This document shows, piece by piece, positions 1,985 through 8,751 of a stretch of 16,821 nucleotides of DNA. This stretch comes from a virus. Taxonomy: Duplodnaviria > Heunggongvirae > Uroviricota > Caudoviricetes. Below the pieces are notes generated by a model. The model saw only the letters and a list, made by a program, of their open reading frames with translations, did no database searches and was not told where the DNA came from. The stretch lies in IMG/VR virus record IMGVR_UViG_2713896784_000031, one strand, 5' to 3'. The position numbers and the translations under genes are program-made. The stretch's first letter is position 1. The number at the start of each line of letters is the position of its first letter.

Positions 1985-2794
1985 TTATTCTTCTGAATTA
2001 TCGATCACACTGTATTCCCCGGTTAATACAGAGGAGTCTGCCGGATCGATTGTCAGTGGTTCCTTTTCATCCATTGATACTGCACGCTGGATTTCAATTG
2101 AGACAGGCAGGTATTTAAACAGGCGACGAATAGCCGTTTTTTTTGCCATTTCTTCCCAGTGAGTTACCCATGGCCCGTTATTACCAGCCTTACTCTGGCT
2201 GCGCACCAGTTCAATCTGTTTGCGCGTCATAACTTCAAACTGAGTCCCTCCGTCTTTCAGTCTTGCGACAGCATAGACGTGGGTAACCGGGGCATCTTCG
2301 TTTTCTCCCGGGCGGTGTATTAACTTTTCATCAAGGCCAAATTCGAAGCTAAACTCGTCACCTTCACGGACAACACGGGCTGACAGGCTGGCGATTTGAC
2401 CAGAACGGCGAGCCAGATCAATCATGCCGCGATAGCCAATGATTAGCTGAACGTTTTTTTTACCGCTCTTTTCGTTTTTATTACCAAAAGGCAGTAAATA
2501 TGCATGACCGAGAGCGCTACCGGGCTCAAGCCCGAGCTGTGAACACTGTACGATTGCACTGACAAAACTCATAGTGTCACAGTTTCCTAACGCCGGAACT
2601 TTACGAATTTCTGTGGTGGCGATACGGATCATACGTTCAGCCGTCATATGGCGTGGAAGAGCTGCTGCCAGTTGCTCTTTCATTGATGGCTGGTTAATAA
2701 AACTAATCACGTCGTTATTTTTAATTGCTGCTGGTGCACGGTTTCCCTGAGTTTTTTGCAGATCGGCTTTTGCGATTGGTGGTTGCTTAGTCAT
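1985..2794 (-). CDS. recT: RecT single-strand annealing protein, 269 aa
   Basis: Sequence from [50 protein letters not shown] matches my recollection of E. coli RecT; AAGGA ribosome-binding site upstream; overlaps the recE 3' end by 8 nt. The ORF track's extra 19 N-terminal residues are probably not translated. Confidence 0.9.
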
Positions 2795-5336
2795 TTGCAT
2801 ATTCCTTAGCCCAGCGGGGCAGTGATAACGTCTTAATAGCTGGCCATTCATTGGTATTGAGGCAGTCAGCCAGGGTTCGCAGATTGCGGTGATATTCCAG
2901 CTGACCTGCCAGTTTTGCTTCTTCGCCCATCATGAAAATTTCAACCGGATAACGTCCGCATTCAATAGTTGTGCTGGCAACCAGAAAAACGAAAGTTGGC
3001 TGCACTCCAAACTGTGCTTCATAACCGTCACTGTAGAATGCATCCTGAACGTGATAGCGGTAGTCGTAATAAGCGGTTTTGAATCGTTGAATATCCGCCG
3101 TAGTTTTCACGTCCATGATCCAGTGAAATTCAGGGATAATTTTGTCCGGACGGCACCGACACAAAATTCCTGTTTCAGGATCTTCCCAGTAAATTGATGA
3201 TTCAGCGTGTCCGGCGCTTTCAACAAGCCATTGCCCCAGCGGCAAAGCCATAACGCTTTGATACATGAGTTCAATTTTCAGACCTTCTTCCGCAGTGATA
3301 ACCGTTTTTCCTGTGCTTGCGCATTCCATCAGAAACGCTTTCTCTTCTTCTTTTCCGGCGTTTGTACGGCGGTTAAATTCAGGTGCTACGATAAAGCGGT
3401 TACTGAATTCTTCCGGTTCAAGTACCCGGCAGTGGAAAGCGGTTCCTAAATCGAGCGTTTTTGTCTTTGTGTTGTCCACGGGGGCATTTTTACGCCACAA
3501 ATACAGTGCCGGAGTATCAGCAATGTCATCGAGCTGAGACTTACTGACACCGGGACCTACGTGGTAATTCTCATTCGAAATTCCGTAATAAATACCTGGC
3601 TCTATGTCTTCTACGATTACGGGATCTGCGACTTCGCCAGTTTCATCACTGCAATCGCGATGCGGATCGCTGCCAGCATTCTCATTGTGCGGATGTTCAG
3701 CGCCTTCCATTTCCTCCGGATCATTTTCCTTAGCTTCAACCTGATTCTCTTCATCGAATGTTTCCTGGTATGTTGCGTCGCCCATCACCGCGCCACAATC
3801 AGGGCAGTTGCCNNNNNNNNNNNNNNNNNNNNNNNNNNNNNNNNNNNNNNNNNNNNNNNNNNNNNNNNNNNNNATCCATTTCGGATCATTCGGGTCGCTA
3901 ATCCCTTCAACAAATTCTCCGCGAGAGGCAGCCAGCAATTTGTCGGCATCGACAGGATTTTTGGGCGGAATGGTTTTCCGGGCTTCATGGAGTTCTGCCC
4001 GCAGTTTCTGATATTTCGCATCAACAGAATTTACCTGTGACTGAGCATCCAGCGGCTGCGTGTCCTGATGATGTTCAGTTGCATCCGGTTCCACTGTTTC
4101 AGCCGTTGCCTGTTTATCTGCCATTGCGCAAGATGGTTGCGGTTTTTCTTCACCATCGTGTTTTCCTTCTTCTGTTACACGCTGCGGCATCGGGGCAGAG
4201 GAACGACCGCAGGCAATATCCACGATTTCCGGATCAGGGTTGGCATGATCGGTTTCAATCAGCACCTTGTTCAGATATTCAGTGACATGCGCAGGGATAA
4301 CCTCGATCCCAATTGGTGCTTCTTTTACGGACGCAACCACGATGGCGCGGGAATAATCCAGCCCGCCAGGCATGGTGATGAATTTGTCGCGGAAAACAGA
4401 AAAGGGCGGTTTATTTTCAGCGATAATTTCCTCGACACGTTTAGCGTGTGCCGGATGAAGGTTATAAATATCCACATCCATTGAACGGGCCAGAACGCCG
4501 GTGGCTACATCTCGTGCGAGTGATGTCTTATCATGTTTGAATCCTTCACCACGATCGGTAATATTTCCGCCGCCAGCGTTAGCGCCGGATGGCGTGCGGC
4601 TGATGCGTGAAACACGATTTCCTTTCATCCACTCTTTTGTAAGCAGACCGCGATCGGTGTAGTCAGCGCCCAGGTATGCTTCGATAAAAGAGGTCATCAG
4701 TCCCAGGTCCGAATTTACGGGGGCGGGGAAAACTTTGTCAGTGTCTCGCACCAGTTTGTACAAATCCCGAATCTCCAGCGGTTCGAGTTGCACTGCTTTA
4801 TTTGAGATGGCCAGCGCGGTAACGGCGGGAAGTTTTTCATCCTGTGCGTTATGTAATGCGCGCAGTTTGTCCAGTGAAACGTGCGTGAGCGGTTTTTCGC
4901 TGTTGTGTTGCGCCAGCCAGCGAACAGGCAGAATCTGACCTGAAACCGGAAGAAGCATATTCTCCTCAATCTTAGCCATGTCTTCGCCGTTGACGTTGGT
5001 ATTGTCAGTACTGGCTGGTTTGTCCGGAACAGAGGGCGCGATAAGTATCATTGTGATACCATCTTCTCCGCCTTTTTCGTATCGGTTGCAGAATTCAGTA
5101 TCAAACACACCTTCCGGTGGAAGGTCATTCACAACGGGTAAATGGACGCGGATGGGTTTTTTAAAATCCTCTTCGTCAAATCCGGCATCGTCCATTGCAG
5201 CAATGCAGCGTGAAACCGCAACAGAAAGTTTTTTTGCCTCTGTCCAGAAAAAGCCGCCTTTGATGCCGAGGCGTTTTCTGGTTTTATCATTTTTCGCGTC
5301 GCAATACAGAGCGTAATTTTCTTTATCAGTACTCAT
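2787..5336 (-). CDS. recE: RecE exonuclease VIII-like 5'-3' dsDNA exonuclease, interrupted by an N-run at 3813-3873; the N-terminal region differs from the K-12 protein as I recall it
   Basis: The C-terminal two-thirds ([17 protein letters not shown]...[13 protein letters not shown]...[15 protein letters not shown]) matches recalled RecE; GAGGT ribosome-binding site 6 nt before the ATG at 5336; recT follows, overlapping. Confidence 0.85.
3813..3873. other. Run of 61 N (assembly gap or masked bases) inside recE
   Basis: Literal n characters in the sequence; recE stays in frame across the run, but the true length is unknown. Confidence 0.99.
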
Positions 5337-5854: not shown

Positions 5855-6409
5855 CTATTTAATACTCAGCAACTGCTCGACGGTCATATTTTTAATTGCG
5901 CTTCGGTTTACAAGAGTCCAGCCCTGTTTCTCCAGATAAAGGCGGAAAGTGTCCAGGGTACAGACGAGAGCGCCATCAGGAACGGTTTCAGTGAATTCGA
6001 CGTTGCCGAATTTGTCGAAGCGAACAACCAGAGTGCGCCCATCGCCCGGAATGATTTTGTTTGTGGGAGTGGTATTATTCTGGCGTAGCTCTGCTTCCAT
6101 GCGGTCGAACTCAGCGATGTAGGCCTCTTTGAATGCAGCGGCTTTTTTGCCAGTGAAACCCATCACCAGGAAAACGAAGCCGTTTTTGGTGATTTGGTAC
6201 ATTGGGAGTTTGCGCCCGGTTGAGTCGGTGTATTCACTTGGCTTAAAATTAAGCTCAGTGAATTCTGAGGAACATTCCAGAGCTTCAATTTTTTGAATGA
6301 CGTTTTTATGCAGCTTGCGGAAAAACTCTGCAACTGCAACAGACGTAGTGACAGCACGACCATTTTCGATGGTTACGTCAGGGTGAGAAAGGGTAGGGAT
6401 AGTAGCCAT
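5855..6409 (-). CDS. Phage Rha-family regulatory / antirepressor-like protein, about 184 aa from internal ATG
   Basis: From M99 of the track ORF, MATIPTLSHPDVTIENGRAVTTSVAVAEFFRKLHKNVIQKIEA...FKPSEYTDSTGRKLPMYQITKNGFVFLVMGFTGKKAAAFKEAYIAEFDRME fits the Phage_pRha domain consensus. The 98-aa upstream extension contains a terminator hairpin and is probably non-coding. Confidence 0.7.
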   Translation of the reverse strand: MATIPTLSHPDVTIENGRAVTTSVAVAEFFRKLHKNVIQKIEALECSSEFTELNFKPSEYTDSTGRKLPMYQITKNGFVFLVMGFTGKKAAAFKEAYIAEFDRMEAELRQNNTTPTNKIIPGDGRTLVVRFDKFGNVEFTETVPDGALVCTLDTFRLYLEKQGWTLVNRSAIKNMTVEQLLSIK

Positions 6410-6570
6410 GATGGCAGCCTCTAGTGATAAGTTGGTAAACTCACCACCGGAGGTGCAAATCTCATGGGTGGTGAGACGTACAGGGTTTGCACTACCGGTC
6501 ACTAGAGAATCCGGCCCGCCCGAAAACGGCCCCATACGCCCCACCATAATCTGAATGTGGCTGCGCTTTA

Positions 6571-6597
6571 CGCATAAAAAAACCGCTTTGGCGCGGT
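6571..6597 (-). terminator. Rho-independent terminator (minus strand): stem AACCGC/GCGGTT followed by a T7 run
   Basis: Plus strand reads aaaaaaaccgctttggcgcggtt; on the minus strand this is a GC-rich hairpin followed by TTTTTTT. Confidence 0.55.
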
Positions 6598-7114
6598 TAT
6601 GCGCTCTAGTGATCATCGGGGTGCAAATCCCGGCACCCGTTTTATGAGGTGCAGGTGCACTATAATTCCACCCGTTCTGGTTTTCAATAGCTACATCCAA
6701 CATTTTCTCTCACCTTTCATCACTGAAGTGAACTTTGTTGATGCGGTGCCTGGTGCCTCCAGGTGACGTTAACCAGTTAACAATTAACGCCGGATAATCC
6801 ACCCATAACACTGATGCTTTTAACTGTGCCGCGTGCGCTCAGCCGCATTCACCGCATCACAAAATTCACTTTAAAAAGGGGCGGCAGGGCAGCCACGGAG
6901 TAGAACTGATGCCGCCAAGACTACACACAGCAATGTCGTTATTTACAACCGGAGGCGCACTCCCACCATTTAAATTTAACAGACAAGACCGACTCTTTAT
7001 GGATATCGGAAATGCGCCTTCGTGTTGTGCCCGGTTTTATTTCACCACCTCCGGGCTTTGGTGGCCTCGGCTATACCCCTACAGCAAGAATATTGAATTA
7101 ATCCAATAAATGGT

Positions 7115-7267: not shown

Positions 7268-7517
7268 GTTGACCTCATTTCCCCTTAACGCCGGGTGGCG
7301 GAACGTTTTATCTACTGCGCTTTGTATCAATCAACAACTGCCGTCATGTTCGTATGCCTCAGGCTGGCTACTTAGCCCTGTTCAGTGGCTGGATAACTCG
7401 AGGTATTGTCCTGCCGTTCTCTGGTGGGGCGTTGTTTGGATATGCTTATTAAACACAATGCGCTTTCTTGTGTCAACACGAAATGTGTTTTGTGGTGGGT
7501 GTCATATGATGATGGTA

Positions 7518-7542
7518 CAAAAAAAGCCCGCTGATAGCGGGC
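7518..7542 (-). terminator. Rho-independent terminator downstream of the repressor gene (minus strand)
   Basis: Stem gcccgct/agcgggc with a 3-nt loop; on the plus strand it is preceded by an A8 run, which is a T-run after the hairpin on the minus strand. Confidence 0.7.
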
Positions 7543-7573
7543 TGATTGGCATATTACTGTGATAGCAAGATCA

Positions 7574-7993
7574 TTACTCCGGTGGGGGATTATCTTTAAG
7601 CCTGCCTCTCAAATATTTTTCTACATACTCATCGATTTCTTTTAGCCGGACTTCAAATAGCTCAATCATTCGTTGTTGTTCTGAGCCCGGTAGCTGGTTA
7701 AACAACTCAAGAAGTTTTCGTTGGGATTCATTTAACCACAATTCAGAAGATTCCTGTTCTCCAAAGAGGAGCTCAGGAGGAGATATGCCAAGTGCCTTTC
7801 CCAATACGACAGCGTCATGCACTCCAACATTTCTGCTACCCGCCTCATAGTTACCTATACGCGATTGCGTCCATCCGCAGATTTCAGCAAGTTTTCCTTG
7901 AGATAAACCAAGCTTCTGCCTGCGCTCTTTAAGACGCATTGCAATTTTGTCATTGAGCCTACTAGCGGCAATTTTTTCGTTTTCTTTTTCCAT
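7574..7993 (-). CDS. Prophage repressor, XRE-family HTH protein without an S24 peptidase domain, 139 aa
   Basis: HTH motif LGLSQGKLAEICGWTQSRIGNYEAG; divergent from a Cro-like gene with palindromic operators between them; no Ser/Lys LexA-type autocleavage domain recognisable in the C-terminal region. Confidence 0.75.
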   Translation of the reverse strand: MEKENEKIAASRLNDKIAMRLKERRQKLGLSQGKLAEICGWTQSRIGNYEAGSRNVGVHDAVVLGKALGISPPELLFGEQESSELWLNESQRKLLELFNQLPGSEQQRMIELFEVRLKEIDEYVEKYLRGRLKDNPPPE

Positions 7994-8004
7994 TGCATCC
8001 TTGT

Positions 8005-8019
8005 ATCACGAATCGTGAT
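8005..8019. promoter_or_regulatory. Perfect 15-bp palindrome ATCACGAATCGTGAT, candidate operator in the repressor/cro intergenic region
   Basis: Exact inverted repeat seen in the sequence, 12 nt upstream of the repressor start codon. Confidence 0.5.
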
Positions 8020-8040
8020 TTACACAAAACACAAAACAGC

Positions 8041-8071
8041 TTGACCATATAACACAAGATGTGTTTAAAAT
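8041..8071 (+). promoter_or_regulatory. Candidate rightward early promoter (TTGACC -35, TAAAAT -10, 19-nt spacer) overlapping palindrome AACACAAGATGTGTT (8051-8065)
   Basis: Consensus-like hexamers upstream of the Cro-like gene; a second palindrome overlaps the spacer. The spacer is longer than optimal. Confidence 0.4.
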
Positions 8072-8089
8072 TGTCATCGGAGGTTTTCA

Positions 8090-8332
8090 ATGAACAAAAT
8101 TTCAACATATCGAAAACAGCTTGGGCTGTCTCAAAGACAACTTGCTGTTCAGTTAGGGTGGATACAAAGCCGACTGGCAAATTACGAAGCAAATTTTCGT
8201 ACCCCTGGACTAGAGGAGTGCAGAAAAATTGTTTCTACCCTTAATCGGCTTGGCGCTCATTGTGGACTTGACGATGTATTCCCCCCAGACGGTAAGCATA
8301 GCGAAAACAGCATAGGAGCGGTTGATTCATGA
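8090..8332 (+). CDS. Cro-like HTH regulator, 80 aa
   Basis: GGAGG ribosome-binding site 7 nt upstream; HTH LGLSQRQLAVQLGWIQSRLANYE; divergent from the repressor; its stop overlaps the next gene's start (ATGA). Confidence 0.65.
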   Translation: MNKISTYRKQLGLSQRQLAVQLGWIQSRLANYEANFRTPGLEECRKIVSTLNRLGAHCGLDDVFPPDGKHSENSIGAVDS

Positions 8333-8751
8333 AAATCAGGCATGAGCACATCGAATCAGTGCTGTTAGCCCTGGCAGCCGAAAAAGGGCAGGCGTGGGTC
8401 GCTAACGCAATTACTGATGAATATCTGCGCCAGGGGGGCGGCGAATTGCCCCTGGTACCAGGCAAGGACTGGAACAATCAGCAGAATATCTATCACCGTT
8501 GGTTGAAAGGTGAAACGAAAGCGCAAAGGGAAAAAATTCAGAAACTGATCCCTGCGGTTCTGGCAATTCTTCCGCGCGAGCTGCGTCACCGACTCTGCAT
8601 CTTCGATACCCTGGAACGCCGTGCATTACTGGCGGCGCAGGAAGCGTTGAGTACGGCAATTGATGCGCATGATGATGCAGTCCAGGCCGTTTACCGGAAA
8701 GCACATTTCAGCGGTGGTGGGTCGCCCGGTGATTCTGTCGTAGTGCATTGA
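8329..8751 (+). CDS. ydaT: YdaT-like protein (CII-like regulator family formerly called a toxin), 140 aa
   Basis: Position directly after the Cro-like gene with ATGA coupling; length and sequence (MKIRHEHIESVLLALAAEKGQAWVANAITDEYLRQGGGELPLVPGKDWNNQQNIYHRW) agree with my recollection of Rac YdaT. Confidence 0.6.
   Translation: MKIRHEHIESVLLALAAEKGQAWVANAITDEYLRQGGGELPLVPGKDWNNQQNIYHRWLKGETKAQREKIQKLIPAVLAILPRELRHRLCIFDTLERRALLAAQEALSTAIDAHDDAVQAVYRKAHFSGGGSPGDSVVVH

Follow-up and report, generated by a model that had tools for sequence, protein, structure and literature searches.

The window (i.e. the whole stretch of DNA analysed, 16,821 nt) contains a repressor gene and a cro-like gene that are transcribed divergently. 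The cro-like gene is followed by a gene encoding a YdaT protein, and a gene for a Rha-family protein lies on the other side of the repressor gene. These genes and the signals associated with them are:

5855-6703, minus strand: 282-aa protein with Ash and Phage_pRha domains (Pfam).
7525-7543, minus strand: hairpin and T-run resembling an intrinsic terminator, just downstream of the repressor gene.
7574-7993, minus strand: repressor gene, 139 aa; N-terminal XRE helix-turn-helix (HTH) and a short two-helix C-terminal domain, assigned to the DicA / Gifsy GfoR-GtgR class.
7998-8002, minus strand: AAGGA, read from the sequence as the Shine-Dalgarno element of the repressor gene; the ATG follows after 4 nt, and the OR3-position site (see below) is 2 nt away.
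8090-8332, plus strand: Cro-like regulator, 80 aa, HTH_3, with a recognition helix nearly identical to that of the repressor.
8322-8339: YdaT-box TTGATTCATGAAAATCAG with one mismatch; the start codon of ydaT (8329) lies in the spacer of the box.
8329-8751, plus strand: YdaT, a CII analogue (Pfam PF06254), 94% identical to YdaT of the K-12 Rac prophage.

Many E. coli O157:H7 chromosomes match the region between 7400 and 8400 at 99.9% identity, and RefSeq lists the same repressor as WP_000410105.1 in genomes of O157:H7 sharing 99.9% identity with the window. In one O157:H7 chromosome the element adjoins ttcA, and the gene order in one such genome is ttcA-intR-xisR-ralR-recT-recE-ydaE-kilR-Rha-DUF1391-repressor-HTH protein-ydaT-replication genes (ydaV). 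By identity and gene order the window holds the immunity region of a Rac-like prophage located beside ttcA in E. coli O157:H7. The published rac-like prophages Sp10 (strain Sakai) and CP-933R (strain EDL933) occupy the same insertion site and have the same left arm (PMC4632033); judging by insertion site and serotype, we infer that the window is of the Sp10 / CP-933R lineage.

The only Pfam domain in the repressor is HTH_3/HTH_31 at residues 18-75, Peptidase_S24 being absent from the matches, and only about 60 of the 139 residues remain after the HTH domain. The AlphaFold2 model (from an alignment built on 30 homologues) is all-helical with a pLDDT of 87. Its helices span residues 2-27, 32-39, 43-51, 58-68, 72-77, 89-99 and 103-133, i.e. 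a five-helix HTH domain followed by one short and one long helix. A Foldseek search of the PDB with this model returned HTH domains only (those of C.AhdI, P22 c2, the 434 repressor and Cro, SinR, DdrO and Stl), with none of LexA, UmuD or the C-terminal domain of lambda CI among the matches. The PDB sequence search also matched the HTH domain alone, and this domain is a distant homologue of the N-terminal domain of lambda CI. By Pfam, AlphaFold2 and Foldseek the repressor is not of the self-cleaving S24 class, which combines a C-terminal beta-fold bearing a Ser/Lys dyad with a cleavage site of Ala-Gly type. An earlier note on this DNA, made from the sequence, had described a 139-aa repressor with an XRE HTH and without an S24 domain, and had proposed a search for an S24 peptidase fold as a check. 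The description is confirmed and the search was negative. Its suggestion that RecA-stimulated self-cleavage is improbable is likewise supported; because the repressor has no S24 domain, we consider such cleavage very unlikely. The architecture (an HTH and then two C-terminal helices) also resembles that of SinR, which is antagonised by its partner SinI (Foldseek match 1b0n); this is a resemblance only.

The repressor aligns over its full length with DicA of the Qin prophage of E. coli K-12 (135 aa, compared with 139 aa here; 29% identity, E 2e-15), including the C-terminal motif LLELFNxLPxSEQ. With the Gifsy-2 repressor (STM1012) there is 46% identity over 35 aa (E 1e-6) and a common C-terminal motif LFNQLPxxE, while the N-terminal domains of these two proteins are not alignable. 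The repressors of the Salmonella prophages Gifsy-1, -2 and -3 (GfoR, GtgR and GfhR) are similar to that of the window in being about 136-138 aa, uncleaved (PMC3121763) and endowed with the C-terminal motif, and these prophages also have a left arm with recE. In 38 homologues the motif LFxQLPxxEQ is invariant or nearly so, including those in which the HTH has been exchanged. The homologues form a large family of 120-140 aa in prophages of the Enterobacterales, in none of which is there an S24 domain. Its size (~130-140 aa for the class), N-terminal XRE HTH and short C-terminal domain with the motif place the repressor in the DicA / Gifsy GfoR-GtgR class, whose studied members (GfoR, GtgR, GfhR and DicA) are inactivated by the binding of antirepressors.

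The two halves of the protein have separate relatives. In the cI repressor of phage mEp213 an HTH of this type, 58% identical over residues 12-80, is joined to an S24 (LexA-family) domain, in place of the short DicA-type helical domain of the window repressor, while in the homologous loci L018-L023 the C-terminal helical domain is joined to a different HTH. Since the same HTH is found with S24 in mEp213, and the same C-terminal domain with another HTH in L018-L023, the repressor is a product of domain shuffling between the cleavable and non-cleavable classes. The window provides a clear example of lambdoid immunity modules built from exchangeable parts.

On either side of the repressor gene are regulatory regions with the following elements:

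7448-7476, minus strand: putative leftward promoter PL, TTGACA (7476-7471), 17-nt spacer, TTTAAT (7453-7448); conserved in relatives.
7452-7466: OL1-position operator AACAC AATGC GCTTT, with one consensus half, in the spacer of PL and 23 bp from the OL2-position site; read from the sequence.
7475-7489: OL2-position operator AACAC GAAAT GTGTT, overlapping the -35 element of PL by 2 nt; the third full copy.
8005-8019: OR3-position operator ATCAC GAATC GTGAT, i.e. ATCACGAATCGTGAT, a perfect 7+1+7 palindrome.
8028-8042: OR2-position operator AACAC AAAAC AGCTT, its left half matching the consensus and its right half degenerate, overlapping the -35 element of PR by 2 nt.
8041-8071, plus strand: putative rightward promoter PR, -35 TTGACC (8041-8046), -10 TTTAAA (8064-8069, 17-nt spacer) or TAAAAT (8066-8071).
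8051-8065: OR1-position operator AACAC AAGAT GTGTT, i.e. AACACAAGATGTGTT, with two perfect arms of 6 bp enclosing a 3-bp centre that lacks symmetry, inside the spacer of PR.

The two palindromes of the intergenic region had been described earlier as perfect and as distinct from each other. Both lie where they were said to be, but the centre of AACACAAGATGTGTT is not symmetric, and the two are closely related. The sole difference between ATCACGAATCGTGAT and AACACAAGATGTGTT is at position 2 and its mirror position (T/A compared with A/T), and they are variants of a single operator family, AnCAC-N5-GTGnT, of which a third copy at 7475-7489 had been missed. A repeat search grouped 7475-7490, 8005-8020 and 8051-8066 as one 16-nt family. 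Three copies of ANCAC-N5-GTGNT are present in the 16.8 kb of the window, compared with an expectation of 0.21, and none of 200 shuffled sequences reached three; all of them fall within the two regulatory regions, one on either side of the repressor gene. The earlier note had also missed the half-sites at 7452-7466 and 8028-8042. In the window the OR2 and OL1 positions each have one good half-site.

The starts of ATCACGAATCGTGAT and AACACAAGATGTGTT are 46 bp apart and the half-consensus site at 8028-8042 lies exactly midway, giving a spacing of 23 bp. The sites starting at 8005, 8028 and 8051 have the arrangement of the tripartite OR of a lambdoid immunity region, and those at 7475-7489 and 7452-7466, around TTGACA-17-TTTAAT, that of the second operator set (OL). 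The correspondence with lambda extends to the divergent repressor and cro genes, the three operators (23 and 24 bp apart in lambda), the 2-nt overlap of the OR2-position site with the TTGAC of the PR -35 element (TTGACT in lambda), the location of OR1 in the PR spacer, and a mirror-image OL at the leftward promoter. In position and spacing, as read from the sequence, ATCACGAATCGTGAT corresponds to OR3 and AACACAAGATGTGTT to OR1 of a tripartite operator of lambda type. There are also differences from lambda. Lacking the S24 C-terminal domain, the window repressor would not be subject to RecA-mediated induction. Its gene has a Shine-Dalgarno element, whereas the lambda mRNA is leaderless; YdaT, the analogue of CII, is a POU-like protein with no relationship to it; and only two OL sites were found in the window.

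The putative promoters PR and PL were read by eye. A simple promoter scan called neither, since A is not the second base of their -10 hexamers. The TTGAC of the putative PR is kept at the same register in the relatives, in mEp213 and in lambda. Neither the scan nor reading by eye yielded a convincing combination of -35 and -10 elements on the minus strand for a maintenance promoter of the repressor (PRM).

The operators were compared between loci encoding homologues of the repressor in Enterobacterales prophages, together with phage mEp213. The sites at the three positions are:

Window (window HTH type): OR3 ATCAC-N5-GTGAT; OR2 AACAC-N5-AGCTT; OR1 AACAC-N5-GTGTT.
Salmonella L005 (window HTH type): OR3 ATCAC-N5-GTGAT; OR2 AACAC-N5-AGCTT; OR1 AACAC-N5-GTGTT.
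Serratia L007, Klebsiella L009, Citrobacter L011 and Dryocola L013 (window HTH type): OR3 ACCAC-N5-GTGTT; OR2 AACCC-, AAAAC- or AGAAC-N5-GT(G/C)TT; OR1 AACAC-N5-GTGTT.
mEp213 (window HTH type): OR3 ATCAC-N5-GTGGT; OR2 TACAC-N5-GTGTT; OR1 ATCAC-N5-GTGTT.
L018-L023 (different HTH, same C-terminal domain): OR3 TAAAC/TAAAT-N5-GTTTA; OR2 poorly symmetric at the fixed register; OR1 TAAAC-like-N5-GTTTA or CTTTA.

All loci with the HTH type of the window have three sites in the same register, and mEp213 has in addition the same type of Cro and CAC-N5-GTG cores. The OL2-position operator at 7475-7489 is conserved in L005-L010. In the relatives with the other HTH type both the OR3 and OR1 positions switch together to TAAAC-N5-GTTTA. 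Between the sites at OR3 and OR1 the best half-site identity is 4.5/5 when both come from one locus, compared with 2.5/5 (maximum 3) when the HTH types differ. Both positions change along with the DNA-binding domain, which is what one operator set would lead one to expect.

The recognition helices of the repressor (GWTQSRIGNYEA) and the Cro-like protein (GWIQSRLANYEA) are near-identical, and BLASTP aligns the two proteins with an E value of 2e-10. The match of the recognition helices holds in the relatives too. The earlier note had taken the two palindromes to suggest separate sites for two regulators, and in its strict form this would make them dedicated sites, one bound by the repressor only and the other by the Cro-like protein or another regulator only. 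The palindromes do differ symmetrically at position 2 and its partner, the difference is kept in Salmonella L005, and in Serratia and Klebsiella the OR3 position is also non-A there. The site beside the repressor gene is thus systematically distinct, and some discrimination is plausible. Yet the recognition helices of the two proteins are almost the same, the palindromes have the CAC-N5-GTG core and the lambda register in common, and relatives with the other HTH carry the same palindrome at both positions. Operators are shared by both proteins in lambda, in DicA/DicC, which have three operators at each promoter (PMC10448788), and in PaaR2/YdaS of prophage CP-933P, where the footprints of the two proteins overlap (PMC8630535). 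The annotated lambda operators lie in the same register as those of the window, and since OR3 there is ATCAC..GGGAT and OR2 is AACAC..GTGTT, half-sites of both the ATCAC and the AACAC type serve a single pair of proteins in lambda. We therefore think dedicated sites improbable. With near-identical recognition helices, and with both positions changing together, one operator set common to the repressor and the Cro-like protein is the best reading. The site beside the repressor gene may be the preferred Cro site by analogy with lambda OR3, which would be a difference in affinity and not in regulator. In mEp213 the ATCAC half-site is found at OR1 as well, so that the T/A difference at position 2 is no universal mark of OR3.

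A third regulator is encoded immediately downstream. YdaT is assigned by PHROG as a CII-like activator and matches 8bt1 and 3c4r in the PDB. It is a YdaT_toxin/POU-like protein encoded after cro, with its box at the cro/ydaT junction. The window box TTGATTCATGAAAATCAG matches the footprinted YdaT-boxes of Rac (ATGATTCATGAAAATCAA; PMC11879457) and of CP-933P (TTGATT-N6-AATCAA; PMC9986795). In Rac the YdaT-box activates a reverse promoter inside ydaS, raising the expression of racR. The layout, the YdaT regulator and its box are common to the window, to PaaR2/YdaS/YdaT of CP-933P and to RacR/YdaS/YdaT of K-12 Rac, and Rac has in addition the insertion site and left arm of the window. By contrast, the repressor and Cro-like protein of the window are unrelated to RacR and YdaS, and no toxin-antitoxin genes follow the repressor gene in the window. 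The homology to Rac starts right at the YdaT-box, and this marks a mosaic joint, upstream of which the repressor and cro-like genes are unrelated to racR and ydaS. Among more distant relatives the YdaT-box was found only in Rac and in one Serratia type.

YdaT might be considered as the protein for which ATCACGAATCGTGAT is the site, given that YdaT of K-12 Rac binds the racR-ydaS intergenic region as well and lowers racR expression. Footprints of YdaT in the Rac intergenic region are reported (PMC11879457), the window protein is 94% identical to that of Rac, and the right arm of ATCACGAATCGTGAT with its flank reads GTGATT, close to the half-site TTGATT. However, the half-sites face the wrong way (AATCA..TGATT, compared with TGATT-N6-AATCA in the box) and are spaced by 5 nt where the YdaT-box has 6, and there is no copy of the box with two or fewer mismatches in the intergenic region. 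The ATCAC..GTGAT palindrome is found also in Salmonella L005, where YdaT is a different protein of 164 aa and the YdaT-box is missing. Orientation, spacing and conservation lead us to reject binding of the ATCAC palindrome by YdaT, which we regard as exceedingly improbable.

We consider it very probable that the locus is a lambda-like switch in which a non-cleavable repressor and a Cro-like protein act on one operator family, with a YdaT-driven reverse promoter and induction that does not involve RecA. The repressor would bind the 15-bp operators AnCAC-N5-GTGnT at OR1, OR2 and OR3 (23-bp spacing) and at OL1 and OL2. Binding to OR1 and OR2 would shut PR and keep the cro-like gene, ydaT and the replication genes off, while binding to the OL sites would shut PL, which is predicted to drive DUF1391, the Rha/Ash gene, kilR, recET, xis and int. 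The Cro-like protein would bind the same sites, most likely with a preference for the OR3-position site next to the ribosome-binding site of the repressor gene, and so turn off repressor synthesis. YdaT would bind the box over its own start codon and drive a reverse promoter for the repressor gene. Because the C-terminal part of the repressor is a short helical domain and not an S24 peptidase, switching would occur without RecA-stimulated self-cleavage; induction might then proceed by stochastic bistable flipping, by an antirepressor protein, or by both. Of this scheme, the analysis demonstrates the domain content, where the sites lie, their register and kinship, the likeness of the two recognition helices and the covariation in the relatives, while we infer the site preference of each protein, the promoter assignments and the route of induction.

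That induction may need an antirepressor had been suggested in the earlier note, and this is supported by the class to which the repressor belongs, i.e. by the alignment with DicA and the C-terminal motif common with Gifsy-2 (PMC3121763, PMC10448788). Control of this repressor class by antirepressors is already known from the literature. Lemire et al. (PMC3121763) found that the uncleaved Gifsy repressors are inactivated by small antirepressors under LexA control, and counted DicA and RacR in this group. Ragunathan et al. (PMC10448788) found that Rem relieves repression by DicA, and that the bistable DicA/DicC system switches spontaneously in a subpopulation, mitomycin C being without effect. 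DicA differs from the window repressor in its recognition helix and in its operators, which are of TTAG..CTAA type, and DicC is unrelated to the Cro-like protein of the window.

The window was searched for components of this kind. There is no LexA box (TACTGT-N8-ACAGTA) with two or fewer mismatches in the window, and matches with three mismatches are at the level expected by chance. No homologue of Rem or GftA was found by tblastn in the window or in L001, a difference from Qin, which has Rem. Nor is dinI among the annotated genes, so the dinI-LexA box-antirepressor module of the Gifsy prophages is not present within the 16.8 kb. A further difference is that the Gifsy prophages are induced by mitomycin C while Sp10 is reported not to be. 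The absence of the LexA box, Rem/GftA and dinI from the window fits an SOS-blind switch. Two other genes were considered and rejected. The 70-aa ORF at 14153-14404, at the position of rem in Qin, corresponds to PHROG 1813 and has no similarity to Rem. The HTH and M78 peptidase protein at 12575-13732, considered as an ImmA/IrrE-like protease acting on the repressor, matches together with the gene upstream of it RmrT/RmrA of the RosmerTA defence system.

The remaining candidate is the Ash-Rha protein, which the earlier note had named as a possible antirepressor and which would inactivate the 139-aa repressor through its C-terminal domain. In favour of this, the C-terminal 84 aa of Ash-Rha match PHROG 340 (E 8e-5), to which Rem, a proven antirepressor of DicA, belongs with an E value of 4e-21, and also PHROG 2379 ('anti-repressor'; E 1.8e-6). 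A precedent is the antirepressor FsoA of Fels-1, which is itself subject to control by a repressor and has other prophages as its targets (PMC3121763). But direct comparison of Ash-Rha with Rem gives a BLASTP E value of 0.09 and an hhalign probability of 0.8%, and there is no similarity to GftA. The AlphaFold2 model of its C-terminal domain has a pLDDT of 57, too poor to be used, and the set of homologues is shallow. The gene lies downstream of PL and is preceded by a terminator-like hairpin; neither a LexA box nor a convincing separate promoter was found for it. Since the repressor itself would silence the leftward operon, Ash-Rha would be silent in the lysogen and could not start induction. 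None of the five related loci examined has the gene in its left arm, and in K-12 Rac sieB takes its place. So while the PHROG matches stand, the direct comparisons, the operon position and the absence from relatives leave the case weak, and we think it unlikely that Ash-Rha is the antirepressor of this repressor.

A protein made only after derepression could still act later, and it is conceivable, if improbable, that Ash-Rha with a Rem-like C-terminal domain locks the flipped switch by positive feedback and acts in trans on the other short DicA-type repressors, those of Sp4, Sp6 and Sp9. If so, the conserved C-terminal domain of these repressors would be the common target of Ash-Rha in the pool of O157 prophages, and the derepression of several SOS-blind prophages would be coupled through this protein.

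For Sp10, which we take to be the prophage of the window from its insertion site and serotype, both the peptidase-less repressor and the failure of mitomycin C to induce have already been published. What is added here is the map of sites for one prophage and not a new principle, the operator layout being that of textbook lambda; it bears on how O157:H7 prophages respond, or do not respond, to DNA-damaging antibiotics. The Sp10 repressor was reported to contain no peptidase domain or motif, and circular Sp10 DNA was present in untreated cells and did not increase with mitomycin C (PMC2669165). In the same study Sp10 was able to transfer to K-12.

The 139-aa XRE repressor (7574-7993, minus strand) is a case of domain shuffling. 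In the cI protein of phage mEp213 the same type of HTH is fused to an S24 peptidase. Other Enterobacterales prophages (at the related loci L018-L023, L028 and L030) combine the repressor's C-terminal helical domain with another type of HTH, and this helical domain is also present in the Gifsy-2 repressor and in DicA.

There is a mosaic joint at 8320-8340, coinciding with the YdaT-box. Rightwards from ydaT the sequence is Rac-like, and the YdaT protein is 94% identical to that of K-12; to the left of the joint the repressor, the operators and the Cro-like gene are unrelated to racR and ydaS.

We note an inverted repeat resembling the YdaT-box, TTGATTATTAATAATCAG at 1504-1521, which has one mismatch to the consensus TTGATT-N6-AATCAA. 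The start codon of xis is at 1453 on the minus strand, and the repeat precedes it by approximately 50 nt. Through this repeat YdaT, the CII analogue, may control xis-int in a CII/PI-like manner. The repeat is not mentioned in the paper on Rac YdaT (PMC11879457).

Elsewhere in the left arm, recE (2787-5336, minus strand) encodes 849 aa, compared with 889 aa in NZ_CP066753, and the difference in coordinates between these sequences shifts by 120 bp over the gene. Two further features are found close to the DUF1391 and Rha genes:

6881-6896, minus (leftward) strand, terminator-like hairpin between DUF1391 and the Rha gene
6909-7109, plus strand, ORF of 66 aa, on the strand opposite to the DUF1391 and Rha genes

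The 66-aa ORF gave no match in Pfam, PHROG or PADLOC. In K-12 Rac, sieB is found at the place of the hairpin and this ORF.

On the right, 13845-13893 is masked by a run of N, and in closely related O157:H7 genomes the hokD toxin gene is annotated at this position. It is followed by a small ORF:

14153-14404, plus strand, small ORF of 70-83 aa, PHROG 1813, unknown function

In prophage Qin the corresponding place is occupied by the antirepressor gene rem; comparison of the ORF with Rem found no similarity.

At 11932-13732 (plus strand) lie two overlapping genes with matches to both components of RosmerTA, an anti-phage defence system: to RmrT at E 1.7e-18, and to RmrA, a protein with HTH_3 and Peptidase_M78 domains, at E 6e-107. 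The prophage carries this pair as defence cargo in its nin region.
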